Part shown: piece after piece, positions 3,201 to 28,677 of the stretch | Layout of the letters: every line of letters begins with the position of its first letter | Position numbering within the stretch: position 1 is the first letter of the stretch | NCBI RefSeq assembly: GCF_051105105.1 | Contig: NZ_CP185339.1 | Reading direction: 5' to 3' (one strand) | From: Nannocystis pusilla | GTDB lineage: Bacteria > Myxococcota_A > Polyangia > Nannocystales > Nannocystaceae | DNA length: 64,000 nucleotides | The notes under the pieces: model-generated | Databases searched by the model: none | Told to the model about the DNA's origin: nothing | Seen by the model: the letters and a program-made list of their open reading frames with translations, nothing else | Translations under genes and position numbers: made by a program

Positions 3201-6093
3201 TCACCGCTTCGGCTGCGCCGACGCGGCGCCGCCGGGCGTGACGTTCTCGTCGCGCCAGGCGGCGGCCTCGGCGAGGTCGAGCGAGCCGGCGGGTCCCAGG
3301 GCGGTGAAGGTGGCGACGGCCTGCTCGACGAGCGCGCGCGCGCGGACGCGATCGCGCTCGGACAGCCACAGCGCGCGGGCCAGGCCGTACTCGGCGCGGC
3401 CGCGCAGGAGCGCGTGGACGTCGGTGCCGGCGCGGATGGCCAGGGCGCGTTCGAAGGCGGGGATGGCGGTCGCGTAGTCCTTGGCGTAGAGGCCCCACTC
3501 GCCCAGGCCCAGCAGCGAGCGCGCGACCTCGGCGTGGTCCTCGCCGAGGACGCGGCGGCGGATCGCCAGCGAGCGATCGATGACCGCGCGCGCCGGGTCG
3601 AGCTGGCCGGCCTCGAGGTACGACGCGGCGAGGTTGTCGAGCTGCGTGCACAGCTCGATGTGGTCGGGGCCGTGGCGGCGCTCGAGCGAGCGCACGACCG
3701 CCTCGAAGGCGGCGACGGCGTCGATGGAGCGGCGGGCGCGGGCCAGCGCCGCGGCGATGTTGCCCTGGAACACGACCACGAGCGGGTCGTCCTCGCCGCG
3801 GGTGCGGAGGATGATGTCGAGGCCGCGGCGCCAGGTCGCCAGCGCGGCGTCGAAGTCGGTGAGGACGAAGTAGAGGTTGCCCTCGTAGCGCAGGGCCGCG
3901 GCGACCTCGGGGTGCTCGGGGCCGAAGGCGCGCTCGAGGCGGGCGCGGCTGTCCGGAAGGACAGCCTTGGCGCGGTCGAACTCCTGGCGGGCCCACAGGG
4001 CGGTGCCGAACCACTGGCGGGCGCGCGCGGTGGCCGGGTTGTCGGCGCCGTGGAGGGCGTCGTAGGCGGCGACGCTGCGCTCGATGAGCGCCTCGGACTC
4101 GGCGTAGCGCCCGAGCGACCACAGCAGCTTGCTGCGGGCGAGGGCGAGCAAGGCGGCCGCGCCGTCGTCGGGGGCGCGGGTCTGGGCGGCGCCCGCGATC
4201 TCGAGCCAGACCTCGGCGTGGTCGAGGCGGCCGAGGGTGTTGAGGGTGTCGACGAGGGCGGCCGCGGCGTCGCGGGCGACCGCGTCCTGACGGCTGGCGG
4301 TGGCGGTGGTGAAGGCGGCGCGCAGGCTGGTCTCGGCCTCGGCGTCGCGCTGGACGAGCGCGAGCAAGCGGCCGCGTGCGAGCTGGGCCTCGGCGACCGC
4401 GGGGGCGTAGGCGGCGGCCTCGGCGGCGGCGACGGCCTGGTCGGCGCCGAGCAGGCCGGCCTCGTAGCGGCCGGTGTGCTCGAGCGCGGCGACGTTGGCG
4501 AGCGCGCGGCGGACGCCGTCGACGGCCAGCGCGGTGGCCGGATTGGCGGGCGGCGGCACCTCGGCGCGGAGCACCTCGACGTTGGCGCAGCGCTCGATCG
4601 GCGGCAGCGCGGCCACCGCGTCGACCGCCCGCTCGACCACGCCGGCGTCGGCGGCCACCAGCAGGTCGGTGACGGCCCTGACCTCATGGACATGTCGTGA
4701 AAGACAGGCCATGCGCAGGTCGAGCAGGTGCTCCGACTGCTCGCCGCGCGCGTGGGCCTCGCAGGCGTCGCGGTGCATGGCGACGATCGCCTCGGCGCGG
4801 GCATCGAGGCGGCCGGCCACGTGCGACCACGCCTCGTCGGCGAAGCCGAGCCCGCTGGCCTCGAAGGCGTCGGCGGCGGCGTCGCGGCGGGCCGGGTCCC
4901 ACACGCCGACCAGGCGCGCCTCGCCGCCGAGGCAGCGGCCCTCATCCTGGAGGCTCCACGCGGCCGCGGCCAGGCCGATCACCGCGCCGAGGCCGAGGCC
5001 GACCACGGCATGGCGCGCGCGCACCTGCGGGCCGGCGAGGTCGGCGAGCAGCGCGTCCATGCTCGGGTAGCGGGCGTCGGGGACGCGCGCGAGGCCGCGG
5101 GCGAGCACCCGGTAGAGCCGCTTGCCCACGCGCGGGCCGACCTGCACGCGCTCGGGCAGGTCGGCGACCAAGACCTGGTCGCGGAGCTCGTCGACGGTGG
5201 TGCCGGAGAACGGCCGCGAGCCCCACAGCGCCTCCCACAGCGCGACGCAGAAGCTGAACTGGTCGGTGCGGGCGTCGACCTGTCCGCCGAGCCATTGCTC
5301 CGGGGCCATGTACGCCGGGGTGCCGGCGAAGAAGACGGTGCGCTCGACGCCGACGTCGACGAGCTCGTCGCCGGCGGGCCGCTCGGCCTGCTCGGCGAGC
5401 GCGGCCAGGCCGAAGTCGACCACGCGGACGCGGCCCTCGAGGTCGACGAGGACGTTGCCGGGCTTGAAGTCGCGGTGCGTGAGGCCGACGCGGTGCGCCG
5501 CCGCCAGGCCGCGCCCGGCCTCCGAGAAGACGGTGAGGATGTCCTGCTGCGAGCGCTCGCGGTCCTCGAGCCAGGCCGACAGGGTGACGCCGCGGACGAA
5601 CTCCATGGCGATGAACAGCTCGTCGCCGATCGTGCCGGCCTCGTAGACCTGGACGACGTTGGGGTGCGACAGGCGGGCCAGCGCCTGCGCCTCGCGCAGC
5701 AGGCGGGCTTGCAGGCGCTCGTCCTGGCGGTGGTGCGAGCGCACGACCTTGATGGCGACGCGGCGCTCGAGCACCTCGTCGTAGCCCGAGAGGACGACGC
5801 CCATGCCGCCCTCGCCGAGCTCGCTCAGGATCGCGTAGCGGCCGATCCGGCGCGACTGGCGGATCAGCGAGTCTTCGAGCGGCGCCGCGGCGCCGCGCAG
5901 GCCGACACCCGAGGCCGCGTGGAGCGGCGTGCTGTCCCTTCGACCAGGTGCCGCGAGGGCCGTCTCTTCGATCGGGCTCGCGCGGGCCCGGGCGGTGACG
6001 TTCCAGCGCCGGCGACTTGGTGTCGGTAGTCGCGAGCAGGTCCGGGTCCGAGGGCCCGGAGCGCTTGTCGTCGGGCGAGTGGGCACCCACCAT
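3201..6093 (-). CDS. Ser/Thr protein kinase with C-terminal TPR repeats; N-terminus interrupted by +1 frameshift near 6000
   Basis: Kinase subdomains present (GEGGMGVV, AIKVV, HRDFKPGNVLV, DFGLA, GTPAYMAPEQ), then about 500 aa of TPR-like repeats. The kinase frame has no start codon between 5860 and 6000. The ATG at 6093 opens MVGAHSPDDKRSGPSDPDLL in the adjacent frame, which joins the kinase frame at GAACGTC around 6000. Confidence 0.8.
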
Positions 6094-6303
6094 GGAGGAC
6101 GGTACACGACCTGTGCCCGTGCGGCGAGGACGCTATCGCGCACGAGCGCGAGCGCCCCACCCCGCGTGCGCCGGGCCACGCGCGGACCTATGCCCGTCCC
6201 CGGCGGCCGGCGCACGAGATGTCTTTTCAGACAGGTCCGAGAGCCGACAGACGACCGCCCGGGCAGGTCGCCAGATCTGCCCGGGCGGTCCGGTGGGTGA
6301 GGA

Positions 6304-8145
6304 TTACTTGCAGGCCTTGGTGATGCCGACCTTGAGCTGGCAGATCGCGTCGCTGTAGGCGGCGGTGAACACGTCGCGGCGGACGCCGGTCTGGCTCTTG
6401 CCGAGGTCGTCGAGGTCGGGGCTCAGCTGCCCGAGCTTCTCGCGCAGGGTCGTCTCGGTGGTCCACAGCTCGGCGGCGGCGCGGCGGATCTCGACGTCCT
6501 CGTCGAAGGCGTTGAACACCGTGACGATCGGCTCCTTGTCGCCGCCGAGCGGCACGCCCGCCGACTTGACCGCGAGGTTGAAGCGGTCGGAGTCGAGCGC
6601 GAGCAGGACGTTGTAGTCATCACGCTTCGGGTAGAGCGCGCGGACGGCGTCGAGCTCGTTGTCGTCGAAGTCGCCCTCGCCGAGGTTGTTGTCGATCTCC
6701 CAGCGGAGGTCGTCTTCCTTGTTGATCATGCCGACGTTGTGGCAGCCCATGCACGACTTGCCGTTGCGGACCACGCCGTCCGGGGCGTTCTTGTCCTGCA
6801 CGATCTGGATCGGCGCGTCGTCGATGCGGACGCCGGCGGCGTCGACGATCATGTAGCCCTGGAGCCCGTTCGGCAGGCTGTAGATGATCTCGCTGCCGTC
6901 CTCGACGAAGTTGAACGGGTCGACGAACACGTTGGCGTCGCCGGCGTTGCTCTGGAAGTCGTAGCTGATCCAGTAGACGCGGTTGCTGGCGTTCGGGAAG
7001 TCGTGGCGCTCGATCACGCGGTGGTTCTCGGACACGCCCGACTCGTGGAACGCGGCGCGCGCGACCCGGTTCGGGTTGGTCTCGATCTCCTCGGTGACGT
7101 TGGCCTCCACGTCGATGCCGAAGCTCTGCTCGAGCTCGAAGCGGGTCCGCGGGATCCGCAGGATGTCGTGGTAGAGCGGCGGCTGCGCGGAGACCTCGAC
7201 GAACGCGTCGGCCTGCAGCAGGAAGAACTTGGTGTTGGTCGCCTGCTTCACGTCCTCGGCGCTGTCGCCGATGAACTCGATCGCGTACGGGTCCTTGTCG
7301 GCGATGAGCTCCCAGGTGTCGCGGAACTCCTCGACGAAGGTGTTGGTCTCGATGTCGAGCACGCGGCCCGGCGCGTCCCAGTCGTAGTCGCGGATGTCGA
7401 TGCGGAAGATCAGCTTGTCCGGATCGATCGCCACCGGCGGCACGACCTTGATCTCGTTCGACAGGCTGTTGGCCAGCTTCGACAGGGCGTGGCGGTAGAT
7501 CTCGATCTGGTCGTCGCACCAGCCGTAGTTGTAGAGGTGGACCAGGCTGAAGTAGCGGATGAAGGGCCGCGCGTCCGCCGAGATCTCCTGCGTGTTGAGG
7601 AGGTCGTTGCGGATCAGGTCGATCACCTGCGTGCGGGTCATCCACGGGTTCTCGCCGCACCCGGTCACGCCGGCGCACTCGGCGATCCACTGCTCGACCG
7701 CGCGGATGTCGTCCTCGGTCGGCCGCGGCTCCTGGCCCTCGGGCGGCATCGGCAGCATGGTCGCGGCCATGCGGCGATAGATCGCCGAGTTGTTCGGCTC
7801 GCCGGGCACGACCTTGCCGTTCGAGATCAGCGCGTCGAGGTTGGTGATGTAGTTGATGCTGCCGAGGGCCGCGCTGTCGGCCCCGTGACACTGCTTGCAG
7901 TTCTTGTCGAGGATGTTGAGGGTCTGCGCCGACAGCTCGCCGCAGTTGGCCTCGCCCTGCTCGCCGTCACCGCCGGTGCTGCTGCCGCCGTCAGTGCCGC
8001 CGCCGGCGGTCGAGCCCCCGGTGCCCTCGGTCTCGTCGCCGCTGTCGTTGCCCGGCAGGACGACGGTCTTGCAAGCGCCGCCCACCATCAGCGCGAGCGC
8101 TGCGGCGGAGATCAGCGGGATCGATGAGTAGAATCGTTGAGTCAT
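6304..8145 (-). CDS. secreted protein with two CXXCH haem-binding motifs, planctomycete-type cytochrome-c domain / DUF1592-like architecture
   Basis: 613 aa with an N-terminal signal or lipoprotein-like peptide. CKQCH near the N-terminus is followed by VVPGEPNNSAIYRRMAATMLPMPP, which is PSCyt1-like. A second CMGCH lies near the C-terminus. Confidence 0.75.
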   Translation of the reverse strand: MTQRFYSSIPLISAAALALMVGGACKTVVLPGNDSGDETEGTGGSTAGGGTDGGSSTGGDGEQGEANCGELSAQTLNILDKNCKQCHGADSAALGSINYITNLDALISNGKVVPGEPNNSAIYRRMAATMLPMPPEGQEPRPTEDDIRAVEQWIAECAGVTGCGENPWMTRTQVIDLIRNDLLNTQEISADARPFIRYFSLVHLYNYGWCDDQIEIYRHALSKLANSLSNEIKVVPPVAIDPDKLIFRIDIRDYDWDAPGRVLDIETNTFVEEFRDTWELIADKDPYAIEFIGDSAEDVKQATNTKFFLLQADAFVEVSAQPPLYHDILRIPRTRFELEQSFGIDVEANVTEEIETNPNRVARAAFHESGVSENHRVIERHDFPNASNRVYWISYDFQSNAGDANVFVDPFNFVEDGSEIIYSLPNGLQGYMIVDAAGVRIDDAPIQIVQDKNAPDGVVRNGKSCMGCHNVGMINKEDDLRWEIDNNLGEGDFDDNELDAVRALYPKRDDYNVLLALDSDRFNLAVKSAGVPLGGDKEPIVTVFNAFDEDVEIRRAAAELWTTETTLREKLGQLSPDLDDLGKSQTGVRRDVFTAAYSDAICQLKVGITKACK

Positions 8146-8239
8146 GGTCGAAGGTGCTCCTGGAACATGTGGCCCGTAGGACAGGTGGGGGATCGCGGGG
8201 CCCGGGCCGGGGCGACGATCGGCGGCCTCGGGCCAGGGG

Positions 8240-9238
8240 TCAGAAGCGCGCGGACAGGAACATGCCGCCGAAGGTCGGCGAGACGGCGGGCGCGACGCGG
8301 ACGCGCGAGAGCTGCTCCTGGCGCGCCTTCTTGAAGTCGGTCGCGCCGAGGGCGACCAGGGTGACGCCGAGCGCGACGCCGAGGACGCCGGCGACCGCGC
8401 CCGCGGCGGTCATCGTGTCGCCCTGCTTCTTCTGCGCCTCGAGCGGGGCGAGGTACTCGGGGTTGTTTCCGGCCTTGGGCAGCTCGCGGTCGGCCGACTT
8501 GCTGAGGTAGATGCCGCCGCCCATGACGCCGAGGGCCGCGAGGCCGCCGGCGAGGAAGATCGAGCCGGCGATCAGCTCGCCGCGGGCGTTACGACGGACC
8601 GGGTTGGTGCGCCGCACGAGGTCCGGCAGCGCGCTGTCGGCCGCGGTCCGCAGCTCGGTGCTCCACGCGTGCATCGTCTCGAGGTCGTCCGGGTTGACGC
8701 GGATGCCGTCGACCGCCCCGCCGCTGTTGGCGGCGAGCAGCGCGTCCGCGCGGTCGATGTGGCGCAAGCTGGCCTCCCACTCGGCCTTGGCCTGGTCGGC
8801 GCTGCGCTTGCGCGCGAGCTTCTGCCGGGCGTCGGCGGCCGCGAGGTGCAGCACCGGGTCGCGCAGGGCCTCGGCACCGCCGGCGAGCAGGCCGACGGCG
8901 CCCTCGAGGTTGCCGGCGTCGGACAGCTGCTGCGCCTGGTCCTGCAGCGGCGCGCGCTCGGCCTCGGCCTTCTCGACCTGGGCCTTGATCATCGCCTCGC
9001 GCGGCTGGGCCTTCGCGGCCTTCTTCTTGCCGCTCCCGCTCTTCTTCTTCGCGGGCCCGGGCGAATCGTCGAGGACGACGGTGTCGTCATCTGCGGCCGG
9101 CGCGGCCGACGATTCGGTCTTCCATCCATTCGTGGATTCCCCCGGCTGGCCGGCCCACGCGGGCGCCGGCATCGCCAGGGACAATGCGATCCCCACCATC
9201 AGGAGCGAACGGCGCCCCTGCGATCGTACTGTCGACAT
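8240..9238 (-). CDS. hypothetical secreted/membrane-anchored protein (Lys/Ala-rich, C-terminal TM segment)
   Basis: 332 aa ORF with a signal peptide (LLMVGIALSLAMPAPAWA) and a hydrophobic C-terminal segment. No recognisable domain. Confidence 0.6.
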   Translation of the reverse strand: MSTVRSQGRRSLLMVGIALSLAMPAPAWAGQPGESTNGWKTESSAAPAADDDTVVLDDSPGPAKKKSGSGKKKAAKAQPREAMIKAQVEKAEAERAPLQDQAQQLSDAGNLEGAVGLLAGGAEALRDPVLHLAAADARQKLARKRSADQAKAEWEASLRHIDRADALLAANSGGAVDGIRVNPDDLETMHAWSTELRTAADSALPDLVRRTNPVRRNARGELIAGSIFLAGGLAALGVMGGGIYLSKSADRELPKAGNNPEYLAPLEAQKKQGDTMTAAGAVAGVLGVALGVTLVALGATDFKKARQEQLSRVRVAPAVSPTFGGMFLSARF

Positions 9239-9651: not shown

Positions 9652-12600
9652 TTAGTAATTCGAATTACCAAATGAACGCTCGCAGGCGCCGGCCCGTGCC
9701 TCGGCCACGTCGTCGGCCTCTCCGAGGTGGCGCCGGCGCTCCGCCGGCAGCAGGCACGCGCGCGTGGCGGCGGCGAGGCGCGCGCGCAGGCCCTCGCCGG
9801 GCCGCGGCCACACGGCGACGCGGCCGTCGGCGCCGGCCGAGGCGAGGCGGTCGCCGCCGGCGTCGTACGCGAGGGCGTTGACGCCGCCGCCGTGGCCCGC
9901 GAGCAGTTCGGGCCCGGCGTCGCCCTGCAGGGACCAGAAGAGGAGCGCGCCGTCAGCCGCGCCGGCGACGATCCAGCCGTCGCGCGGGTCCCAGGCCACG
10001 CTCGTCAGCGCCGCCGAGGCCCGCCCCAGCTCGGTGCGCACGCCGGTGGCGGCCGCCACGCGGATCAGCGCCCTGCCCTCGCCCGCGACCGCGAGCGCGT
10101 CGCCAGCGGGGCTCCACGCCAGCGCGCGCAGCGGGTGGCCGAGCTCGATGAACACCGTCTGTTCGACGCGCACCAGCACGAAGCCGGAGGCGGTGACGGC
10201 CGCCAGCCGCTCGTCGACCGGCGACCACGCCATGCCGGTGATGGCCCCGCGGCTTTGCGGCGCGCGGGACGGATCGAGCATGTCCTTGAAGTCATGTCCC
10301 GAAGGCCAGAGGAAGAAGGCGCCCTCGCTGCCGCCGGCGGCCAGACGATCGGCGCGCGGATCCCAGGCCAGCGCGGACACCGGGCGGCGATCGACGCTGA
10401 CGCGCCGCGTCGCCCCCTCGCCGCGGGGGATCCAGGTGACCGCGCCGCTGTCGTCGGCGACCGCGAGCTCCTGCCCGTCGCGCCGCCAGGCCAGCGCCAG
10501 CGCGGTGCCGGCGTGGTCGCGCCGACGCACCGGGCCGTCGTCGGTCGGCAGCAGCCACACGCTGCGCGCGCCGGCGGCGGCCAGGGCGGTGCCGTCGGGG
10601 CTCCACGCGAGCGCGTGCACGGCCGCGCCGAGGTCGTGCTCCCGCAGGGCGGCCGGGGCGAGCCGCCACACCCGCGCGCTGCCGTCGTCGCTGCCGGTGA
10701 TGAGCCGGACCCCCACCGGCGCGAACGCCAGCGCCCGCACCGGCCCGGCGTGCCCGCGCAGCACGTAGGGGCGCGAGGTCCCGCCGATCTTCCACACCCG
10801 CGCGCTGCCGTCGTCGCTGCCGCTGGCGAACCACCCTGTCCCGAGAGCCAGGCCGGTGACGCCGCCGTCGCCGACCACCGCGGCGACCCGCCGCGGGGTG
10901 CCGTCGACCCGCCAGACCTCGACGCCGCCGTCATCGCGGCCGATCGCAAGCTGACGCCCGTTGCGATCCCAGGCCAGCGCGCCGACGGCCGCGCCGCGAG
11001 CGACGACCACGGCCGCGCGCCCCTCCGCGACCACCCACACCTCGCCGCGCGGGCCGGCCGCGGCCACGCGCGCGCCGTCGGGGCTCCAGGCGACCGCCGC
11101 GAGCGGACCCGCGACGCCGCGCAGCGGCGTGACCCAATCGACCGCGACCAGCGACACGCCGCCGCGCGCGTCGGTGCGGAGCTGCTCGCCGCCCGGGCCG
11201 CGGCGCGGGTCGGGCGCGGGGCCGCCGGTCCCTGGCGTCGGCGGCCCGCCGGCGAGCGCGAAGCGGCGGACGTTGCCGCCGGCGTCGACCGTCTCGACCG
11301 CGCCGCGCAGATCTTCGGCGGCCGCGGCGGGCCGCGGGCTGTCCTGGGGGACAGCCGACGTGTCCGCGGGGACAGCCGCGCCGGCGACCGGCACCGCGGC
11401 GCTCGCCAGCACGACCTCGCGCGGGTGCGCGTTCGACCTGTCCGCGAGGACAGGCGCAGCGACGACCGCCGCCAATCCGGCCCCGCTCGCCGGCACGACC
11501 TCGCGCCGGCGCGCATTCGACATGTCCACGGGGACAGGCGCAGCAGCGACCGCCGCGGAGCCGGCCGCGCTCGCCAGCACGACCTCGCGCAGGTGCGCGT
11601 TCGACCTGTCCGCGGGGACAGCTCCCGCCCCCGCGCTCGGCCTGCCCTCGCGGACAGCCCCCACCGCGCCCGGCACCGCGCCGGCCGCCGGCCGGCTCCT
11701 GTCCCCCGGGACAGCCTCGATCCAGCGCACCGCCGTCACCGCGCCGTCGTGGCCGCGCAGGATCGCCTGGCTGATCGGCTCGGCCAGCACGCGCTGGGCC
11801 AGCGCGCCCGGCTCGTCGAGCTCGCGCAGCAGCAGCGCGGCGGCGGTCGGGTCGCGCGGCAGCAGCGAGAACGCGGCGTCGCGGACCCGCAGCGCGTGGG
11901 CCTGGCGCTCCGCGGCCGCGCGCTCGGCCGCCAGCTCGCCGGCTCGCGCGTCCGCGGGGGCGCTGTCGGGCGCGGCAGCCTGCGGGGCCGCGGCCCCGCC
12001 TGCGCCCGCGTCGGGCTGCGCCAGCGACACCCCGAGCGCGACCAGCCCCGCCGCGGCGGCCGCGGCCCCGCCGGCGATCAGCCACGTCCGCGCGGGCACC
12101 GGCTCGGGGCCCTCGGCGAAGCGTCGCCGCGGCTGCAGAGCCGCGAGCAGCTCCTCCATCGTCGGCCAGCGCTCGGCTGGCTTTTCGGACAGCCCGCGGA
12201 TGATTGCGCGGCGCACGCGCAACGGCACGCGACTTTCGCGCGGAATGGGCGCGATCTCGACCTGCCCGAAGCGCGGAAGCGAGCCGAACGGCCGCAGACC
12301 GAACAAACCTTCGAACAGCGCCACGCAAAAGCTGAATTGGTCGGAGCGCGGCTCGGCGTTGCCGGTGCGCTGCTGCTCGGGCGCCATGTAGGCCGGCGTG
12401 CCGAGGATGCTGCCGGTGCGCGTCAGCGGCATCAGCTCGTCGTCGAGGGCCTCGCCGGCATCCATGGCGCAGGTGAGCCCGAAGTCGAGGACACGGGCGC
12501 GATCGCGGCTGTCGACGAGCACGTTCTCGGGCTTGAAGTCGCGGTGGAGCAGGTTGGCGTGATGCGCCGCGGCCAGCGCCCGCCCGGCCTGCAGGTACAC

Positions 12601-13065
12601 GGCGAGCACCTCCTGCCACGGCCGCGGGCGCTCGCGCAGCCACGCCTCGAGGGTCACGCCCTCGATGAGCTCCATGGCGATGTAAATTTGGTCGCCCCAC
12701 GCGCCGACCTCGTAGATCCGCGCCACGTGCTCGTGCTCGAGGCGTGCCATCGCCCGGGCCTCGCGCAGCAGGCGGGCGCGCCCCTGGTCGTCACCCTGGA
12801 GGTGCGGGTGCAGCAGCTTGATGGCGACGCGGCGATTGAGCTGGGCGTCGACGGCCGCATACACGACGCCCATGGCCCCCTCCCCGAGCCGGCGCTCGAC
12901 GTGAAAGCGCCCGATCATGGTGGGCGCGGCCGGCTCGCCGAACAGCCGGCCCATGACGCGCGCGTGGAGACGATGGACGTCAACGTCACCCCACGTGCCC
13001 GCACCTGCGCCGCGGGCGGCCCTCGAGTCGGGCGTGTCGGGCGGCGTGTGGGGCGGCGTCGACAT
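9652..13065 (-). CDS. Ser/Thr protein kinase with C-terminal WD40 beta-propeller (PkwA-like); linker contains in-frame 84-bp x3 tandem repeat
   Basis: Kinase motifs GEGAMGVVY, AIKLL, HRDFKPENVLV, DFGL and GTPAYMAPEQ. The C-terminal 600 aa carries many WSPDG/WD-like repeats. Start chosen at MSTPPHTPPD (13065) so that it does not overlap the divergent sigma gene. Confidence 0.85.
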   Translation of the reverse strand: MSTPPHTPPDTPDSRAARGAGAGTWGDVDVHRLHARVMGRLFGEPAAPTMIGRFHVERRLGEGAMGVVYAAVDAQLNRRVAIKLLHPHLQGDDQGRARLLREARAMARLEHEHVARIYEVGAWGDQIYIAMELIEGVTLEAWLRERPRPWQEVLAVYLQAGRALAAAHHANLLHRDFKPENVLVDSRDRARVLDFGLTCAMDAGEALDDELMPLTRTGSILGTPAYMAPEQQRTGNAEPRSDQFSFCVALFEGLFGLRPFGSLPRFGQVEIAPIPRESRVPLRVRRAIIRGLSEKPAERWPTMEELLAALQPRRRFAEGPEPVPARTWLIAGGAAAAAAGLVALGVSLAQPDAGAGGAAAPQAAAPDSAPADARAGELAAERAAAERQAHALRVRDAAFSLLPRDPTAAALLLRELDEPGALAQRVLAEPISQAILRGHDGAVTAVRWIEAVPGDRSRPAAGAVPGAVGAVREGRPSAGAGAVPADRSNAHLREVVLASAAGSAAVAAAPVPVDMSNARRREVVPASGAGLAAVVAAPVLADRSNAHPREVVLASAAVPVAGAAVPADTSAVPQDSPRPAAAAEDLRGAVETVDAGGNVRRFALAGGPPTPGTGGPAPDPRRGPGGEQLRTDARGGVSLVAVDWVTPLRGVAGPLAAVAWSPDGARVAAAGPRGEVWVVAEGRAAVVVARGAAVGALAWDRNGRQLAIGRDDGGVEVWRVDGTPRRVAAVVGDGGVTGLALGTGWFASGSDDGSARVWKIGGTSRPYVLRGHAGPVRALAFAPVGVRLITGSDDGSARVWRLAPAALREHDLGAAVHALAWSPDGTALAAAGARSVWLLPTDDGPVRRRDHAGTALALAWRRDGQELAVADDSGAVTWIPRGEGATRRVSVDRRPVSALAWDPRADRLAAGGSEGAFFLWPSGHDFKDMLDPSRAPQSRGAITGMAWSPVDERLAAVTASGFVLVRVEQTVFIELGHPLRALAWSPAGDALAVAGEGRALIRVAAATGVRTELGRASAALTSVAWDPRDGWIVAGAADGALLFWSLQGDAGPELLAGHGGGVNALAYDAGGDRLASAGADGRVAVWPRPGEGLRARLAAATRACLLPAERRRHLGEADDVAEARAGACERSFGNSNY
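11400..11635. repeat. tandem repeat, about 84 bp x 3, inside the kinase-WD40 CDS (encodes VPADRSNAHLREVVLASAAGSAAVAAAP x3); units contain TTCGAC(A/C)TGTCC motif
   Basis: Direct read: three near-identical units (gctcgccagcacgacctcgcgc...gttcgacctgtccgcg(a/g)ggacag...). Flanks from 11335 to 11720 carry further GTCC...GGGACAG palindromes. Confidence 0.8.
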
Positions 13066-13138
13066 CGTCGGATCGCAGTGAAGATAACAGGCGGAGTGGC
13101 CCCGCGGGCGGCGCGATCGGGGGTAAGATCGAGGCGCC
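13066..13138. promoter_or_regulatory. divergent promoter region between kinase-WD40 gene and ECF sigma gene
   Basis: A 73-bp gap separates the divergent starts. It contains a TAAGAT -10-like element. Assigned from position only. Confidence 0.3.
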
Positions 13139-13891: not shown

Positions 13892-15379
13892 ATGAACGCC
13901 ACCGGCACCCTCAGCCGTGCGACCCAGATCGTCTATCGCGTCGGCTCCCGCCACTCGAGCGAGGTCGACACGCTGACGCTCGAGCCCGACGGACGGGCGA
14001 CGTGGACCTCGCAGGGCCGTCACTGCGAGGTGCAGCTGCCGCCCGAGGTCTACGGCGACATCCTCGGCCGCCTGGCGCAGTACGGCTTCAAGGCGGCGAC
14101 CGGCCTGCACGGCGACGCGATGGCCGACTACCAGCACGAGATCGAGGTGCTCGAGGGCCCGAAGAAGAAGTCGCGCTGCACGCTGCGGCTCGGCCACGAG
14201 TTCGGCACCTACCTCGGCGACGCGCCGATCGGCATGAAGGAAGTGGTGGCCCTGCTCGACCGCGTCGCCAGCCGCGTCGAGTCCGGCGCCGACCTGTCCG
14301 AATCGCCAGACGCGCTGATGGGCGCCCTGCTGCGCAACATCGACTTCCCCTACGTCAACCCGCACGGCGAGCCGGGCGCGTTCCTGTTGATCGACCCGCA
14401 CGGGCAGGTGCTCGCCGCCTCGTCGCTGCGGTTCGCCTTGCCCCACGCCAGCGGCCTGCTCCCGTTCCGCGACGGCGACCGCTTCGGCTTCGTCCGTGCC
14501 GGCGGCGAGGTCGTCATCGCCCCGGCCTACGCGCTGACGCTCGGCTTCAGCGAGGGCCTCGCGGCGGTCAAGCTCGACGGCGGCTGGGGCTTCATCGACG
14601 TCCGCGGCGAGCTCGTCATCCCGGCCCGCTTCACCGCCGCCGCCAGCTTCGCCGACGGCCTCGCGTGCGTGCAGCTCGGCGACCAGACCGGCTACTGCGA
14701 CCGCGCCGGCGCGTTCGTCCCGGCCCCGCCGCAGGCCTCGCAGCTCGGCCGCTTCGCCGAGGGTCGGGCCCCGTTCCGCGCGCTGTCGCGGATGGGCGTG
14801 CCCGCGTGGGGCTACATCGATCGCGCCGGCCAGGTCGTCGTGCCCGCCGGCTTCGACTACGCCGGCGAGTTCTGCGAGGGCCTCGCCTGCGTCCAGCAGG
14901 ACGACCTGTTCGGCTTCGTCGACGTCAGCGGCGCCTGGGCCATCGAGCCGCGCTTCACCGACGCCGGCGACTTCCACGAGGACCTCGCCGCCGTCGGCGA
15001 CAGCGGCCAGTACGGCTACTGCGACAAGAGCGGCACCGCCGCCGTCGACTTCCGCTTCCTCCGCGCCGGCAACTTCGCCGAGGGCCTGGCCCCGGTCGGC
15101 GTCGGCGCCAAGACCGGCTTCATCGACCGCGAGGGCCGCATGGTCATCGAGCCGCGCTTCGACCTGGCCCAGAGCTTCAGCGAGGGCCTGGCGGCCGTGC
15201 GCGTCGACCACAAGTGGGGCTTCATCGACCGCGCCGGCCGCATCGTCATCGAGCCGATCTACGAGGGCGCGGGCCCGTTCGGCGACGGCGTCGCCTGCGT
15301 GCGCAAGTTCGCCGACCCGCGCCCGGTGATCCATACCGGGTCGAAGAAGGTCATCATCAACATGAGCAAAAAGACATGA
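13892..15379 (+). CDS. WG-repeat (KWG) containing protein
   Basis: 495 aa with repeated FxEGLAxVxxxGxWG(F/Y)ID units, about 9 copies. The stop overlaps the rsgA start (ATGA). Confidence 0.75.
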   Translation: MNATGTLSRATQIVYRVGSRHSSEVDTLTLEPDGRATWTSQGRHCEVQLPPEVYGDILGRLAQYGFKAATGLHGDAMADYQHEIEVLEGPKKKSRCTLRLGHEFGTYLGDAPIGMKEVVALLDRVASRVESGADLSESPDALMGALLRNIDFPYVNPHGEPGAFLLIDPHGQVLAASSLRFALPHASGLLPFRDGDRFGFVRAGGEVVIAPAYALTLGFSEGLAAVKLDGGWGFIDVRGELVIPARFTAAASFADGLACVQLGDQTGYCDRAGAFVPAPPQASQLGRFAEGRAPFRALSRMGVPAWGYIDRAGQVVVPAGFDYAGEFCEGLACVQQDDLFGFVDVSGAWAIEPRFTDAGDFHEDLAAVGDSGQYGYCDKSGTAAVDFRFLRAGNFAEGLAPVGVGAKTGFIDREGRMVIEPRFDLAQSFSEGLAAVRVDHKWGFIDRAGRIVIEPIYEGAGPFGDGVACVRKFADPRPVIHTGSKKVIINMSKKT

Positions 15380-16488
15380 CCGAAGCGCCAGATCCGCTGG
15401 CGCGCCTCGGCTGGGACGAGCACGCCGCCGCGGCTTGGGCGGCCCACCGCGGCGACGGCAACCTGCCCGGCCGCGTCGCCGCCGAGCACCGCGGCGGCTA
15501 CGTCGTCCTCGCCGCCGCCGGCGAGCTGCGCGGCGAGCTGGCCGGCAAGCTGCGCAAGGCCGCGGCCAAGGACGCCATGCAGAAGCCGGCCGTCGGCGAC
15601 TGGGTCGCGCTCAACGTCCACGCCGCCGCCGGCACCGCCACCATCCACGCCGTCCTGCCGCGCAAGACCGTCCTCACCCGCCGCGCCGCCGGTCGCGGCG
15701 CCGCCGCCCCGCAGATCGTCGCCGCCAACGTCGACAGCGTCTTCATCGTCCACCCGCTCGACCAGGCGCCCAACCTGCGCCGGCTCGAGCGCTACCTCGC
15801 CATCACCCTCGCCAGCGGCGCCGCCCCAGTGCTCGCCCTGACCAAGGCCGACCTGGTCGACAGCGCCGAACCTGTCCTTTCGGCCATCCGCCCGCTGCTC
15901 GCCCGCGTCGCCGGTGAGCGGACCATCCCGATCCACGTGCTCTCGAGCGTCAGCGGCCAGGGCCTGGGCGAGCTCGACGCCTACGTCGCCCGCCCGCAGA
16001 CCACCGCGCTGATCGGCGCCTCGGGCGTCGGCAAGAGCACCCTCATCAACCGCTGGCTCGGCGAAGAGCGGCTCAGCACCGGCGGCCTGCGCGACGACGG
16101 CAAGGGCCGCCACACCACCACCCACCGCGAGCTGCTGGTGCTGCCGCGCGGCGGCCTCGTCATCGACACCCCGGGCATGCGCGAGCTCGGGCTGTGGAAC
16201 GCCGACGAGAGCGTGCCCGAGGCGTTCGCCGACATCGCCGCGGTCGCCGAGGGCTGCCGCTTCCGCGACTGCACCCACGCCCACGAGCCCGGCTGCGCCG
16301 TGGTGGCCGCCGCCGCCGCCGGCCAGATCGAGCCCGAGCGCCTCGACAGCTACCGCAAGCTGGTCGCCGAGCTCGCCTCGCTGGCGCGCGACCGCGACAT
16401 CGCCGCGCGAAATCGCGCCCGCAAGGCCGATCACCGGATCCTGCGCGCCTACTACAAGGACCCGCGCACCCGCGGCCAGCGCGACTGA
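15376..16488 (+). CDS. rsgA: ribosome small-subunit-dependent GTPase A (RsgA/YjeQ/EngC)
   Basis: Circularly permuted GTPase motifs (NVDSVFIV, LTKADL, GASGVGKSTLIN) and a C-terminal zinc-finger CRFRDCTHAHEPGC. This is the true ORF within the longer 14002..16488 frame. Confidence 0.85.
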   Translation: MTEAPDPLARLGWDEHAAAAWAAHRGDGNLPGRVAAEHRGGYVVLAAAGELRGELAGKLRKAAAKDAMQKPAVGDWVALNVHAAAGTATIHAVLPRKTVLTRRAAGRGAAAPQIVAANVDSVFIVHPLDQAPNLRRLERYLAITLASGAAPVLALTKADLVDSAEPVLSAIRPLLARVAGERTIPIHVLSSVSGQGLGELDAYVARPQTTALIGASGVGKSTLINRWLGEERLSTGGLRDDGKGRHTTTHRELLVLPRGGLVIDTPGMRELGLWNADESVPEAFADIAAVAEGCRFRDCTHAHEPGCAVVAAAAAGQIEPERLDSYRKLVAELASLARDRDIAARNRARKADHRILRAYYKDPRTRGQRD

Positions 16489-17674: not shown

Positions 17675-17699
17675 GCCGCGAGCCTGCGGCAATCACATG

Positions 17700-17960
17700 G
17701 CTGCGAGAGCATGTTTATAAAAACATGCTTCATGAGACATGTCCTCCGAATCACCCGGATCGGCGCCGCGGCCCGACCGTGCTCGCTCGGCGAACGCATC
17801 CTCGGCCCGTTCCCTGGTCGCTCGACGCTGCTGCGCGCCGCGTAGTTCGCCAAGCGGGAGCCGCTCCGCACAGTTCGCCCGTCCCGCCTCGAAGACATGT
17901 CGTATCGGACATGCCTGATGTGACATGTCCCGATCGCAATGGCCGATCCGCCATGTCTTC
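17700..17960. repeat. intergenic cluster of GACATGTCC-core units plus AT-rich hairpin AGCATGTTTATAAAAACATGCT
   Basis: Direct read at 17715-17736 (perfect 9-bp arms), then gagacatgtcctcc. At 17888 the units gacatgtcgtatcg/gacatgcctgatgt/gacatgtcccgatcg follow. Confidence 0.7.
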
Positions 17961-18176
17961 CACGCACCCCGCGTCGTCGCCCCGGTCGACCGGACCCGCC
18001 GCACGGCCGAGCTCGCTCGCCGCCATCCGCGCCCTCGCCGCTACCGATTCGGTCGACGCCGCTGCGGCCGGCGCCAGGGCCATGCGGCTGGGCGTCATCG
18101 CTGTGCGTGCTATCCCGAGGCGCGACGGAATGCGCCGCCGGCCGCCGCCGTTGTCGTGACGCTCCGCCTCTTCCTC

Positions 18177-25734: not shown

Positions 25735-26110
25735 CGCCGACATGTCTTTAGAGCCAGGCTCACCCGCAACCCACGTCCAGCGCCGCCCATCGCCTCGCCG
25801 ATGCCCCGCCACACCTGAATGACATGTCCCTTGAGACATCCGCTTGCCCTCGTTCGCCCCTGCCGGATGCCCCCGTGCCTTTGAATGCTCTCGGCACGGC
25901 CCTCGCATCTGTCCGTCCGGGCATCACGAAAATCTCAGAACACGTCCTGCGAGACATCCATGATGCTCGCTTGTCCCTTGTCCGCACTCTCTGCTCTACC
26001 CTAAACCGTCTTTTAAGACATGTCCCTTCAAACATCTAAACTCCAGCCCTCGACTCTACCTTGCCCACTTAAAAAATGTCCTTTCAGCCATATCCTTCGA
26101 AGATCTCGAC
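25735..26110. repeat. long intergenic region densely seeded with (G)ACATGTCC(C)TT-type units
   Basis: catgtctttagagcc, tgacatgtcccttgagacatcc, gagacatccatgatg, taagacatgtcccttcaaacatc, aaaatgtcctttcagccatatccttcg. Confidence 0.65.
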
Positions 26111-26232
26111 CCAAGCCCTCACCTCTGCGGCGCCCCGACGCGTCCTTTCCGTCATCCGCAACCAGCCCTCGCTCTGTCTGGGCGTCCCAATCGCGCCCAT
26201 CGCCTCGCCCCGCCCCGCAAGAGCGCGCCCCT

Positions 26233-28677
26233 TCACCCCTGCGCCCGCTCCTCGGCCCGGGCCTCCGCCACCCGCGCCGCCACGCGAGCGCGGCGATCCT
26301 CGCGAGCCCACCGCGCCAGCGCCCCCAGCAGCCCCAGCGCCGCGAGCGGCCACAGCGGTGCCAGCCGGTCGCGCCGCGCCTGGCGTTCTGCCCACGTCGC
26401 CGGCCGCTCCCACGCGAACCGCCGCGTCTCCGTCGGCGCCGGCGCCAGCCCGTGTCGCGCGCGCACCTCCGGGTCCAGCTGCGCGAACGGTTCGTCCGCG
26501 CACGTCACCTGCGCCAGCACCCGCACCTGCTGTCGCGCCGCGAAGTGTTCGCGCGGGTCGCTGCCGGGCGGCGGCAGCGGAGCCCGCAGATGCTCGAGCA
26601 GCACCTCGCGCGGCGGCTCGCCTCCGTGCTCGAGCGCCCAGCGGCGGCACAGGTAGCGCGCGTGCCACGGCGCCAGCTTCTCGCGCTGCCCGAGCACGTT
26701 GTCGCCGATCTTCCGCCAGCGGTCGTGCCACAAGTGCGCCCGCGGCAGGTCGTCCTCGCGCTGCGGCTCCGCCCCGAAGCGATGCCGTTCCCCCGCCGCG
26801 TCGACCACCGTCGCCCGCAGCAGGTTCTGCTCGCGCGGCGGGTTGGGGGCGAACATCGCCCATACCTGGCTCGTGAAGCTCAGCTCGATCCACGGCCCCA
26901 CCAGCGCCCGCGCCTGCGCGCGCCACGGCACGCTCGGCCACGCCGGCAGCTGCCACATCAGCAGGGCAGCCACGTGGTACGCGACCAGGCCGCCCGCTGC
27001 GAGGCGTCCCGCCGGGCCGTGGGCCCACGGCTCGCGCAGCTCGATCATCGCGCCCCGATCGCGCCGGGCGATCCGCCAGCCGACGATCGTCAGACCTGTC
27101 CCTGCGGCCAGCCACGCCGCGTGCCAGGCCCGCGCCCCCACCCCGGCGATCAGCGCGATCGCCCCGCCGGCCAGCACCAGCCCGCCTGCCCCCGCGATCG
27201 CCCACCCCGGCAGCGCCGCCGCGTCGCGGTGCAGGTGCGGCAGCGACGGGTCCTCGCAAGCTGTCTCTTCGCGCAGGTTCTCGGGGACAGGCACGCCCCG
27301 CCGCGCCAGCCCGCGCAGCGCTCGCTGCAGCGTCGCCACCGCCCACGGACCTGCGCCACAGACCAGGTAGACGCTGATCGTCGCCGGCGCGAACGCCCCC
27401 ACCGCCAGCAGGGCGTGGTTGCCGAGGTGGAACAGCAGCCCGAACCCGAGCCACCACTTCGGCGCCAGAGGTCCCGCGGCCAGCCGTCGCGCCGCCGCCC
27501 CGGCCCGCGGCCCCGCGACCGCCGCCGCCGCGCACACGGCGGCCAGCACCGCCAGCGCCGCGGCCCGCTCCGGCGCGCCCGGAGTTCCTGGCTTTTCGAC
27601 CAGGTCCGCAGGGACAGCCGCGGCGATCGCCGCCGCCGCCGCCAGCCCGCCCCAGCACAGCCGGGCCGCCGCCGCCGCGGGCCCGCGCAGCGCCGGCGCC
27701 CCCGAGCGCCCGAGCGCCCGCGCGACCAGCCCGACCAGCACCAGCGGGAACAGCCGCTCCCACCACATCACGCCCCAGCTGGCCAGGCGCAGCGGCCACG
27801 GCCCCATCGCCGCGATCGCGGCCGACATGTCCCAACGGACATACGTGTCGCGCATCAACACGAACTGCAGCACGTCCCCCGTCTGCCACGACGTGCCCGC
27901 CTTGACCCAGCCGTTGGCCGCGTAGCACAGCGCCAATTGCCCGGCCATCAGCGCCTGCGGCCAGGCCGGGATCCGGCGGTAGATCGCCGCCAGCCCGTGC
28001 GGCGCCGCGGCCGACGGGGCCGCGCCCGCGCCCGCACCTGGCCCCGAGGTCATGCTCAAAAGGCCACGTCGTCGCAACGCCCGGCAGCGGCGCCAATTGT
28101 CGACGCTGTAGGCCGCCCCGCAGCGCGACCACATCAGCAGGAACAGGAACGCGCAGAACACCTGCTCCCCGCCCCAGTGGGCCTCGCCGCGGCGCAGCAG
28201 CCCGGCGTAGAGCGACCACGAGGCGATCGCGCTGAGCCGCGTGCGAAACCCCAGCGTGAGCGCCAGCGCGGCCGCGAAGAGCAGCCCGAGGTGAACTTCG
28301 ACCACACCCGGGCTGTCGGCGAAGTAAAGCGGCGACCACCGGCCGCTGATCACGAAGTCGAGGACCGCGGTCGCGTCGCGCGGGCCCGCGGGCTCGCGCA
28401 CCCCGTCGCCGAAGCCGATCAGCGCCCCCCGGCCCATCCGCTCCGGGACGGCGGCCCGGGGCAAGAGCCCCTCGTCGGAGAACAGATACGAGGCGAGCGG
28501 CGCGATCTCGAGCAAGTTGACGAGTAGACAGCACCCGAACGCGATCCGCAGCAGCGCCAGCGGCCGCGGATCGACCGCGCGCAGCAGCACCCGGCGCAGC
28601 CCCTCGCGGTATAGAGCGACGAGGCCGACAAGGCTCGCAGCCATCAGGGCGAGCGCCACCGCGAGTCCCGGAGACAC
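26233..28677 (-). CDS. HTTM-domain (vitamin K-dependent gamma-carboxylase-like) polytopic membrane protein
   Basis: 814 aa. N-terminal signature ALLRIAFGCCLLVNLLE...YLFSDEGLLPR. Many TM helices. Confidence 0.8.
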   Translation of the reverse strand: MSPGLAVALALMAASLVGLVALYREGLRRVLLRAVDPRPLALLRIAFGCCLLVNLLEIAPLASYLFSDEGLLPRAAVPERMGRGALIGFGDGVREPAGPRDATAVLDFVISGRWSPLYFADSPGVVEVHLGLLFAAALALTLGFRTRLSAIASWSLYAGLLRRGEAHWGGEQVFCAFLFLLMWSRCGAAYSVDNWRRCRALRRRGLLSMTSGPGAGAGAAPSAAAPHGLAAIYRRIPAWPQALMAGQLALCYAANGWVKAGTSWQTGDVLQFVLMRDTYVRWDMSAAIAAMGPWPLRLASWGVMWWERLFPLVLVGLVARALGRSGAPALRGPAAAAARLCWGGLAAAAAIAAAVPADLVEKPGTPGAPERAAALAVLAAVCAAAAVAGPRAGAAARRLAAGPLAPKWWLGFGLLFHLGNHALLAVGAFAPATISVYLVCGAGPWAVATLQRALRGLARRGVPVPENLREETACEDPSLPHLHRDAAALPGWAIAGAGGLVLAGGAIALIAGVGARAWHAAWLAAGTGLTIVGWRIARRDRGAMIELREPWAHGPAGRLAAGGLVAYHVAALLMWQLPAWPSVPWRAQARALVGPWIELSFTSQVWAMFAPNPPREQNLLRATVVDAAGERHRFGAEPQREDDLPRAHLWHDRWRKIGDNVLGQREKLAPWHARYLCRRWALEHGGEPPREVLLEHLRAPLPPPGSDPREHFAARQQVRVLAQVTCADEPFAQLDPEVRARHGLAPAPTETRRFAWERPATWAERQARRDRLAPLWPLAALGLLGALARWAREDRRARVAARVAEARAEERAQG

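Follow-up and report, generated by a model that had tools for sequence, protein, structure and literature searches.

The window analysed here is a stretch of 64,000 nucleotides from the Nannocystis pusilla contig NZ_CP185339.1. Three of its genes, all on the minus strand, are central to this work. The first (3201..6215) encodes a Ser/Thr kinase with TPR repeats (Pfam Pkinase and TPR_12; GC3 0.95) and has an uncertain start codon. The second (9652..13068) encodes a Ser/Thr kinase-TM-WD40 protein (Pfam Pkinase and WD40; GC3 0.92) that is 100% identical to P0001 of N. pusilla. The third (26233..28677) encodes an HTTM-like membrane protein; its match to Pfam HTTM (E=1.2e-5) is below the gathering score, and its homologues carry PF05090. 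All sites within genes described below also lie on the minus strand.

A palindromic repeat family is found in the window. Its core is GGACATGTCC, equivalent to TGTCC-N4-GGACA, and its half-site is GGACA/TGTCC. The half-sites alternately abut or stand 4 bp apart, which creates a phase of 14 bp. The core is the most over-represented word of the window, with 7 sites compared with 0.1 expected from a Markov model, and GACATGTC has 24 sites compared with 2.7 expected. The spacing between CATG sequences peaks at 14, 28, 42 and 56 bp (30, 16, 10 and 5 pairs, respectively), with 0–4 pairs at all other spacings.

The family is mainly intergenic, and 18/38 site clusters lie inside genes. Arrays usually begin 4–45 bp past a stop codon and occupy 17/32 intergenic regions. 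They are found in 5/7 convergent, 1/4 divergent and 11/21 tandem regions, and the convergent-divergent contrast has no significance at these counts. The 14-bp-phased arrays at 17693..17945 (no strand assigned), which exemplify the parent family, are hypervariable between strains. Large indels distinguish the intergenic arrays of different strains, and one array is absent in N. bainbridge. All 11 perfect TGTCC-N4-GGACA palindromes of the window are located in genes, and the intergenic units are mostly nGACATGTCC. These two forms could be sub-classes. They stand side by side in the intergenic arrays of L025, L026 and L027, and those of L026 contain mixed forms, such as GGACATGTCC-N4-GGACATGTCA. 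A strand polarity in the window (11:2 for GACATGTCC-only versus GGACATGTC-only) was not reproduced in other loci and involves only ~5 independent arrays, so no claim is made for it. A search of Rfam returned no family match, and literature searches on the word itself or on repeats and palindromes of Nannocystis returned nothing relevant.

Family units within coding sequences

Chance levels within genes were derived from codon-shuffled CDS. TGTCC-N4-GGACA occurs 11 times in CDS compared with 0.03 expected, and GACATGTC occurs 5 times compared with 0.42 expected. A two-unit (24-nt) PWM trained on intergenic units yields 25 matches scoring 14 bits or more in the CDS as a whole, where 0.19 are expected. 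The sites at 4688 (23.7 bits), 10276 (25.4 bits), 11340–11713 (18.5 bits at 11518) and 27823 (25.4 bits) stand far above codon-shuffle chance and are genuine members of the family. The original prediction of in-frame units in genes holds at these sites and fails at 27255..27290 in the HTTM-like gene, where the score is below 12 bits. The peptide encoded by this non-family segment, VPENLREET, recurs as VPEH..ET in homologues with as little as ~37% identity, so the resemblance of the segment to the motif is coincidental.

In the kinase-TPR gene, two to three phased units lie in a conserved helix (LLDLRMACLSRHVHEV) at 4674..4711 (23.7 and 21.8 bits), and their rare codon run reads TGT CTT TCA CGA CAT GTC CAT GAG GTC AGG. 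The unit predicted at 4686–4715 was located at 4688–4711; it has the sequence GGACATGTCG tgaa AGACAGGCCA and encodes ...LDLRMACLSRHVHEV... An isolated perfect palindrome, TGTCCGGAAGGACA, is found at 3950..3963 of the same gene (GCT GTC CTT CCG GAC AGC = A V L P D S). In the kinase-WD40 gene, two CATG-centred units, 14 bp apart, occupy a WD40 blade loop at 10276..10299; the unit was correctly recognised from the outset, with a coordinate (10268) 8 bases too low. Its sequence, GAGCATGTCC ttga AGTCATGTCC, encodes G H D F K D M L D and uses the rare codons CCT, GGA, CAT and GAT. The HTTM-like gene contains the unit CGACATGTCC caac GGACATACGT at 27823..27846, within the predicted interval 27815–27850, which is read as TAT GTC CGT TGG GAC ATG TCG (Y V R W D M S). 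A near-perfect palindrome with one arm mismatch lies at 27603..27616 (GCT GTC CCT GCG GAC CTG = A V P A D L). Further sites include a perfect palindrome at 48122..48135 (A V P M D R) in an unannotated gene (48024..49118), the unit CGGCATGTCC ttcg GGACA at 48552..48575 (A V P K D M P; 19.3 bits) and an exact GGACATGTCC at 61190..61199 in an MMPL-family gene (A D M S H).

The motif had also been proposed to arise from a process indifferent to coding status. The core word is ~28-fold denser in non-coding DNA than in genes, 10/11 in-gene palindromes use a single reading frame and the in-gene copies mostly lie outside Pfam domains, all of which contradicts that proposal. The preferred frame, xxT GTC CNN NNG GAC A(T/G)G TCx, encodes x-V-[P/L/R]-x-D-[M/R]-S and is shown to be the one that yields tolerable codons. 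The in-gene sites leave the gaps between intergenic arrays unfilled (permutation, P ~0.8), which argues against a simple regular-spacing function, and this candidate was rejected.

Origin of the isolated units

Alignments with distant homologues contain no indels across 3950, 4688 and 27823, which indicates that codons already present were converted to the motif. By this comparison, the isolated copies arose in place via nucleotide substitution, and insertion, one of the routes originally envisaged, is not supported for them. At 27823, the ancestral TAC GCC CGC CTC GAC TGG CAC was changed to the present codons, and YARLDWH of the more distant orthologues became YVRWDMS by clustered in-place substitutions. 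Nucleotide substitution is also the route by which HIP1, a cyanobacterial repeat considered below, has been reported to spread.

Residues common to orthologues had been taken in advance as a sign that the resemblance to the motif is a coincidence. At 4688, the residues are indeed conserved family-wide, and yet coincidence is not implied, because the rare-codon run that carries the motif is kept as far as the 74% orthologue; the Arg codon at this site is CGA, AGA or CGC, depending on the species. The 3950 palindrome is invariant in six genomes and in L027. The 10276 site is also invariant in the six genomes. In the 74% orthologue, its CATG-N10-CATG is kept with four residues changed (GHVSENMPD), and in the family-lacking genome the position is without the motif and 5 aa shorter.

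The array in the kinase-WD40 gene

The in-frame module array at 11340..11713 encodes residues ~455–584 of P0001. It comprises six perfect TGTCC-N4-GGACA units, which start at 11340, 11361, 11439, 11523, 11607 and 11700, and one degenerate unit at 11643–11656. The units are read as xxT GTC CNN NNG GAC A(G/T)G TCG and encode x-V-[P/L]-x-D-[R/M/T]-S, with Arg and Met interchanging via AGG/ATG. The array had been described as three copies of an 84-bp repeat at 11335–11720, with 84 explained as 6 x 14. TRF confirms the period (84 bp, 3.3 copies, 81–86% matches over 11356–11622), but the three long modules measure 84, 84 and 78 bp and are non-identical. The modules of orthologous arrays measure 21, 24, 27, 36, 39, 42, 45, 54 and 57 bp, and longer ones measure 63, 69, 72, 78, 84, 114, 204 and 207 bp. 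Every module length is a multiple of three and the array is always in frame; with lengths so varied, the 6 x 14 relation is a coincidence.

The number of units between 11.4 and 11.7 kb, which the original prediction had singled out as worth checking, differs between genomes. No unit is present in the syntenic 44% orthologue (L028), whose genome is without the repeat family, or in P0009. Three units are present in the 74% orthologue (L027) and 5–9 in six closer genomes (5 and 7–9 being the counts recorded), and part of the array has decayed in N. punicea. Frame-tolerant expansion within coding linkers is thus confirmed for this array only. Judged from the alignments, the array is the sole lineage-specific insertion among the in-gene sites. 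Unit-headed modules are shown to have been amplified locally into an in-frame minisatellite, with whole modules gained and lost between species and strains. We rejected an origin by gene fusion, with an intergenic array trapped where a kinase gene joined a WD40 gene, because the array-less orthologues are already fused and the array lies inside a blade.

The residues of the array have pLDDT values below 50 and no secondary structure, and they are flanked by confident beta strands (443–449 and 589–594). The array is thereby modelled as a disordered surface loop of ~130 residues in the first WD40 blade. It resembles coding minisatellites in its head-to-tail, in-frame whole modules and strain-variable copy number, and it resembles coding tandem-repeat linkers in encoding a predicted disordered low-complexity segment. 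In contrast to a minisatellite, the conserved part of the module is a DNA palindrome of a genome-wide non-coding family and not a peptide.

A search for homologues of the 99-aa linker peptide gave no match, probably owing to low complexity; with nothing gained from this search, occurrence of the module elsewhere was checked at the DNA level. No other copy of the 84-bp module was found in the window or the fetched loci (~600 kb), where only a ~16-nt motif is common, and the module was ruled out as a dispersed element. This result bears on the quite improbable explanation that tiny MITE- or REP-like units transpose, also in frame into genes. A precedent is provided by the Rickettsia palindromic elements (RPE), which are palindromic repeats located in frame within unrelated genes and encode fold-tolerated peptide segments (review, PMC10969869). 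Transposition would be consistent with the insertion of the kinase-WD40 array relative to distant orthologues, with the strain indels and the array missing in N. bainbridge, and with the lineage-restricted distribution of the family. However, the isolated in-gene units are indel-free compared with homologues, a unit of 14 bp would shift the reading frame on insertion, and neither terminal repeats nor target duplications were seen. RPE form dispersed families of ~100–150 bp insertions with a conserved peptide, whereas 3950, 4688 and 27823 are no insertions and the long array, the only inserted site, is a local tandem amplification found nowhere else. Dispersed copies of at least 100 bp with terminal inverted repeats, as in RPE or in-frame MITEs, are not formed by the 84-bp module, and the modules of the array take many lengths.

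Conservation of the motif at the DNA level

Wobble bases were tested with matches to the inner GTCC-N4-GGAC, in which the arm T is not part of the selection. Among the in-frame GTC CNN NNG GAC matches (n=13), T stands at the wobble position before the match in 11 (T3 background 4.1%) and A directly after it in 10 (A1 background 13.7%). The kinase-WD40 genes of six genomes contain 41 perfect in-frame units, almost all of them within the linker array. The residue that precedes Val in these units is changeable (A, P, S, T, D or N), residue 2 is always encoded by CNN (P/L/R) and residue 3 always by NNG. In three positionally orthologous units, 0/30 arm columns vary compared with 6/12 loop columns (p=1.8e-4) and 27/42 loop-plus-flank columns. 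Of the rare A/T wobble bases, 12/17 inside the isolated sites and 98/307 outside them are the same in each of the six genomes (p=0.0024), a small sample from close genomes (89–96% nucleotide identity) that are phylogenetically non-independent, so the conservation tests have modest power. Overall, the isolated sites vary only a little less than the gene background does. Two sites have retained the DNA motif despite changes in the residues that it encodes. The constraint acts on the DNA, and the peptide is not its target. The in-gene motif is shown to be a DNA-level signal overlaid on the code, which forces rare codons and is preferentially conserved.

These observations already disfavour selection on the peptide, in which V-P-x-D-R-S would be a functional short linear motif, such as a phospho-site in the kinase linker, and the DNA likeness a by-product. 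Although the repeat lies in a Ser/Thr kinase, D-[R/M/T]-S/T is always present and the 4688 residues are conserved family-wide, this explanation is very improbable: T is fixed as the wobble base ahead of Val, as are the rare codons AGG, GCT and CCT, even though adjacent residues differ, the identical DNA word occurs in unrelated proteins and non-coding arrays, Arg and Met interchange at one position, and the motif at 10276 is kept with a changed peptide.

Persistent biased repair or gene conversion would leave a conservation signature identical to that of selection. Such a motif-directed bias would turn near-matches into the motif, selection on proteins would purge it from genes and the remaining in-gene copies would be functionless. 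Very-short-patch repair is an analogue and a bias was once proposed for HIP1; we know of no candidate enzyme. Several observations fit this neutral process: the clustered substitutions at isolated sites leave the length unchanged, the synonymous change among CGC, CGA and AGA at 4688 makes or breaks the match to the core, AGG and ATG interchange within units, the copies are depleted in genes and confined to one frame, and the permutation detected no spacing function. We nevertheless regard it as rather unlikely. It leaves unexplained the strict 14-bp phasing, the position after stop codons and the rapid turnover of intergenic arrays as opposed to the fixed in-gene sites, and site-specific conservation of this kind has been argued to favour selection in the case of HIP1 (Xu et al., 2018; PMC5861425).

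Folding of the units

Single units are able to fold at -5.5 to -9 kcal/mol, and the linker RNA folds better than shuffled sequences (z=-4.9). An RNA element was weighed, in which UGUCC-N4-GGACA hairpins in transcripts would serve as REP-like 3'-end stabilisers or terminators and the in-gene copies as internal structure or processing sites. The placement of arrays shortly after stop codons and their frequency in convergent compared with divergent regions agree with this explanation, although the latter contrast is not significant. However, mismatched units of the orthologous arrays show no compensatory change, their arm mismatches representing unpaired decay, and the abutting 10-bp palindrome GGACATGTCC is unable to form a hairpin. 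At 10276 and 4688, the CATG-phased units show no folding advantage over shuffled sequences, and the family lacks an Rfam match. An RNA element is thus unlikely; sequence, not structure, is what the units keep.

The RAYT-associated REP/BIME repeats are extragenic palindromes that cluster past the 3' ends of genes, including convergent pairs. The arrays of this family usually start shortly past stop codons, yet 18/38 of its site clusters are within genes; clusters that differ between strains are common to both. REP are imperfect hairpins of ~20–40 bp that are essentially excluded from genes, whereas the Nannocystis units also lie in frame inside genes, measure 14 bp with a 5-bp stem and are in many cases unfolded.

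Distribution and comparison with known repeat words

In-gene palindromes and intergenic phased arrays co-occur in the window and in L001–L005 and L025–L027. Both are absent from L024, L028, L007–L009, L012, L014, L016, L018 and L020, which include other Nannocystaceae and Polyangia loci. Across these loci, the repeat family appears to be Nannocystis-specific. Nannocystis-like metagenome contigs carry in-frame units in unrelated proteins, outside Pfam domains. A metagenome scan with TGTCCNNNNGGACAGGTCGAAC returned 48 single matches, mostly chance occurrences in unrelated GC contexts, with only ~8 Nannocystis-like contigs among them.

HIP1, the DNA uptake sequences, REP and the Rickettsia RPE are the closest analogues of the family. 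The uptake sequences USS of Pasteurellaceae and DUS of Neisseria are abundant, genus-specific words found in genes and between them; their copies within genes tend to lie in tolerant frames and in protein segments of low conservation. They are non-palindromic and without phased tandem arrays, whereas the Nannocystis family has both a palindrome and such arrays. HIP1 (GCGATCGC) of cyanobacteria is a hugely over-represented short perfect palindrome in and between genes, which uses non-preferred codons and is conserved more strongly than codon conservation alone would explain; no function has been assigned to it (Xu, Lawrence & Durand 2018, PMC5861425). The Nannocystis palindrome is similarly over-represented relative to the Markov expectation (GGACATGTCC, 7 versus 0.1; GACATGTC, 24 versus 2.7), and its wobble bases are more conserved inside the sites (12/17 versus 98/307, in a small sample of close genomes). 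It does not share the HIP1-like pattern of three frames and equal coding and non-coding enrichment, given its single frame in 10/11 copies and ~28x higher non-coding density, and its copies form 14-bp-phased tandem arrays.

Discussion

We propose that the in-gene units belong to a genuine repeat family and form a DNA signal overlaid on the code, that isolated copies arose in place and the kinase-WD40 array by local amplification, and that the sites are recognised by a factor. We give this explanation as a whole a probability of about one half. The putative factor would be sequence-specific and two-fold symmetric and would recognise the motif in duplex DNA, and the motif would be retained owing to this recognition. 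Selection for sites across the genome may then reach into genes wherever the protein tolerates the motif.

A broader proposal is more tentative. Possibly, a genus-specific, genome-wide system reads the phased GGACA/TGTCC arrays, and selection for its sites would be strong enough to rewrite codons of conserved proteins and to seed new disordered segments. The putative reader of phased half-site arrays may be a DNA-binding, nucleoid-organising or self-marking factor. If such genus-wide recognition is true, a non-coding DNA signal would directly drive innovation in protein sequence, and the 14-bp-phased palindrome array would represent an undescribed class of bacterial repeat.

The sites described here show concretely how a signal of non-coding DNA shapes protein sequences, via rare codons and non-conservative replacements (Arg/Met; YARLDWH to YVRWDMS). 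The outcome includes a strain-variable insert of ~130 residues, predicted to be disordered, which a signalling kinase carries within one of its WD40 blades. Such sites will distort codon-usage analyses, dN/dS and repeat annotation in Nannocystis genomes. If the constraint is genome-wide, Nannocystis would be a second, independent case of a palindromic word in genes besides cyanobacterial HIP1. Its architecture is more structured than that of HIP1, with 14-bp phasing, placement shortly behind stop codons and the use of one reading frame, which should ease finding the factor that recognises it.

The palindromic family within and between genes

The word GGACATGTCC shows the strongest over-representation in the window (G+C 73%), with 7 sites compared with 0.1 expected under an order-3 Markov model; under the same model, GACATGTC occurs at 24 sites vs 2.7 expected. 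Intergenic copies of the core word form head-to-tail arrays in strict 14-bp phase: CATG-to-CATG distances of 14, 28, 42 and 56 bp were observed 30, 16, 10 and 5 times, respectively, and every remaining distance up to 60 bp 0–4 times. Two readings of the same array are possible: 10-bp palindromes with 4 variable bases between them, or 14-bp TGTCC-N4-GGACA units that abut. Arrays are present in 17 of the 32 intergenic regions of at least 50 bp (5/7 convergent, 1/4 divergent and 11/21 tandem) and usually start 4–45 bp 3´ of a stop codon. The convergent vs divergent difference resembles the 3´-end bias of REP elements and is not significant at these numbers. The family has no match in Rfam, and no description of it was found in the literature searched.

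Further features of the family were observed in the window. Directly 3´ of the stop codon at 59016, four copies of a 37-nt composite unit, CGACATGTCCCGAGAGACA-N5-GTCTCC, lie at 57–59 bp spacing (59043–59253) and join the family core to a second hairpin (GAGACA/TGTCTC). On the + strand, hGACATGTCC occurs 11 times and GGACATGTCd twice irrespective of gene orientation, an apparent polarity of the asymmetric form that was not reproduced in the other loci; GC skew is negative across most of the window.

Family units also reside in coding sequence, as the original prediction held, at 4688 in the kinase-TPR gene (3201..6215), at 10276 and 11340–11713 in the kinase-TM-WD40 gene (9652..13068) and at 27823 in the HTTM-like membrane protein gene (26233..28677), all on the minus strand and assigned by GC3 frame analysis and Pfam. 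A 24-nt position weight matrix trained on intergenic units only scores 4688 at 23.7 bits, 10276 and 27823 at 25.4 bits and 11518 at 18.5 bits. Coding sequence contains 25 hits of at least 14 bits, compared with 0.19 after codon shuffling, and 11 perfect TGTCC-N4-GGACA palindromes, compared with 0.03 expected; six of them fall within 11340–11713. The unit placed near 10268 exists, with its coordinate corrected to 10276. In contrast, the segment at 27255–27290 gives no matrix hit, and distant homologues share the peptide it encodes; it is not a unit.

The motif had been suggested to be indifferent to coding status. This does not hold: the core word is approximately 28-fold denser outside genes (19 sites in 7.6 kb of non-coding DNA vs 5 in 56.5 kb of coding DNA), and in-gene copies are limited to a single frame. 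In Nannocystis-like metagenome contigs, in-gene units fall outside Pfam domains in unrelated proteins, including a ketoacyl-synthase-N protein, an amidohydrolase, a patatin and a 1240-residue proline-rich protein with a three-unit array. The last of these (metagenome contig Ga0075163_10023314, locus L062:500–800) has no Pfam domain and carries PVPRDIS, PVPADSS and PVPEDTS in frame at spacings of 21 and 36 bp, so motif-headed coding arrays are not unique to the kinase.

Three other segments of the window were noted. A two-unit match at 15358–15381 spans the ATGA stop/start junction of a WG_beta_rep gene (13892..15379) and an RsgA GTPase gene (15376..16488), and start-codon context may contribute part of its score. 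The former gene has an internal 102-bp tandem repeat (15053–15304, two copies, ~76% matches); WG_beta_rep is present in its syntenic orthologue, and the repeat is therefore of the common protein-domain kind, with no connection to the motif. A + strand ORF at 28767–29342, with weak codon periodicity and a Thr/Asp-rich low-complexity product with recurring YAGPDEEW segments, is uncertain as a real gene.

The constraint acts on DNA rather than on the peptide

The reading phase xxT GTC CNN NNG GAC Axx is shared by 10 of the 11 in-gene palindromes. A non-circular set comprised all in-frame GTC CNN NNG GAC in the window genes (13 cases, 8 independent loci). The wobble base preceding GTC is T in 11/13 (T3 background 4.1%) and the base following GAC is A in 10/13 (A1 background 13.7%). 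Across 41 perfect in-frame units of the kinase-WD40 gene from six genomes, nearly all from the linker array, the residue preceding Val varies (Ala, Pro, Ser, Thr, Asp or Asn), residue 2 is always Pro, Leu or Arg from a CNN codon, and the residue 3 codon always ends in G (GCG, GGG, GAG, CAG and similar). The Arg following Asp uses the rare AGG codon, replaced in some units by ATG (Met). For three positionally orthologous units in the six genomes, 0/30 arm columns are variable, compared with 6/12 loop columns (p=1.8e-4) and 27/42 loop-plus-flank columns (p=2e-9).

The isolated sites also use unusual codons: 4688 reads TGT CTT TCA CGA CAT GTC CAT GAG GTC AGG in a gene with a GC3 of 0.95, and 10276 contains the rare codons CCT, GGA, CAT and GAT. 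In a wobble-conservation test patterned on a HIP1 study (PMC5861425), rare A/T wobble bases were unchanged across six genomes at 12/17 positions in isolated in-gene sites vs 98/307 elsewhere (p=0.0024). The constraint thus acts on the DNA, and a purely peptide-level explanation of these codon patterns is highly improbable. Maintenance of the motif by a repair or conversion drive is a doubtful, somewhat less remote explanation.

Isolated units arose in place by substitution

Five syntenic loci (Nannocystis sp. RBIL2, N. exedens, N. bainbridge, N. punicea and N. pusilla Na p29; 89–96% nucleotide identity) and two more distant ones, L027 (74% protein identity) and L028 (44%), were compared. Sites 3950, 4688 and 10276 are kept in every close genome. 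In L027, the counterpart of 10276 retains CATG-N10-CATG although its peptide is GHVSENMPD instead of GHDFKDMLD, and that of 4688 is AGACATGTCC, with a different rare Arg codon. L028, a locus from a genome without the family, has no palindromes and none of the three sites; its sole CATG-N10-CATG match sits on the start-stop overlap of two genes.

Alignments with distant homologues contain no indels at 3950, 4688 or 27823. At 27823, the more distant orthologue L025 reads TAC GCC CGC CTC GAC TGG CAC (YARLDWH), and the window and orthologue L026 read TAT GTC CG(T/C) TGG GAC ATG TCG (YVRWDMS). Isolated units were therefore written on existing codons by substitution and were not, as the original prediction had entertained, inserted.

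Intergenic arrays turn over rapidly, strains differing by large indels and by units that cannot be aligned, whereas in-gene sites are fixed. The arrays at 17660–17970 and 3100–3215 are hypervariable in unit number, spacer sequence and large indels despite flanking genes at 89–96% identity, and the latter is wholly missing in N. bainbridge; the motif-poor intergenic region 8125–8250 is well conserved. Phased arrays and palindromes occur together in Nannocystis loci, and both are missing in a Nannocystis sp. MAG (L024) and in the other Nannocystaceae, Kofleriaceae and Polyangia loci sampled, which links the palindromes inside genes to the intergenic family and places the origin of the two in a single clade.

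Local amplification in the kinase-WD40 gene

The kinase-WD40 array is the sole true lineage-specific insertion among the sites. TRF confirmed a period-84 repeat at 11356–11622 (3.3 copies, 81–86% matches). The reading of 84 bp as 6 x 14 is coincidental, since modules of 21 to 207 bp occur and every length is divisible by three. In-frame expansion, one of the readings originally offered, holds for this array, and repeat number differs between genomes: the array is absent from the homologues P0009 and P0010 and from L028, consists in L027 of three perfect palindromes spaced 39 bp apart, and has five units with a decayed stretch in N. punicea and 7–9 units in N. pusilla, RBIL2, N. exedens and N. 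bainbridge. The module is absent elsewhere in ~600 kb of sampled DNA, with only the ~16-nt motif in common; the array therefore grew through local tandem amplification, and spread of the units by transposition is improbable.

The kinase-WD40 protein is 100% identical to a Nannocystis pusilla protein. Two orthologues from N. pusilla strains (P0005 and P0008) are truncated or frame-shifted, one immediately upstream of the array, which could reflect either pseudogenisation or indels introduced by long-read sequencing errors in GC-rich repeats. In the AlphaFold model (88 homologues, mean pLDDT 77), residues 455–584, exactly the array, have pLDDT below 50 and no secondary structure, and the flanking strands 443–449 and 589–594 are confident. 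A short loop joins the corresponding strands in array-less orthologues, and the linker is thus modelled as a surface loop within the first WD40 blade.

Candidate mechanism and related systems

Shuffled sequences fold as well as the CATG-phased units at 10276 and 4688, and single TGTCC-N4-GGACA units reach only -5.5 to -9 kcal/mol. A role at RNA 3´ ends is unlikely. A regular-spacing role of the motif was not supported. No compensating change was seen in arm-mismatched units.

Within genes, the Nannocystis motif behaves most like HIP1 and uptake sequences; compared with HIP1, it is restricted in frame, chiefly intergenic and phased. Between genes it is reminiscent of REP/BIME clusters, although with a much shorter unit that also occurs inside genes. 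The in-frame kinase-WD40 array recalls the Rickettsia RPEs (PMC10969869), although it reflects local amplification rather than dispersed insertion.

The in-gene motif is thus under DNA-level constraint, with isolated sites formed in place, in-frame units amplified locally within a tolerant loop, and restriction to one lineage. The motif would be recognised in duplex DNA by a putative two-fold-symmetric, sequence-specific factor, a reading supported by the inability of the 10-bp palindrome to form a hairpin, the lack of covariation between the arms and the folding values above.
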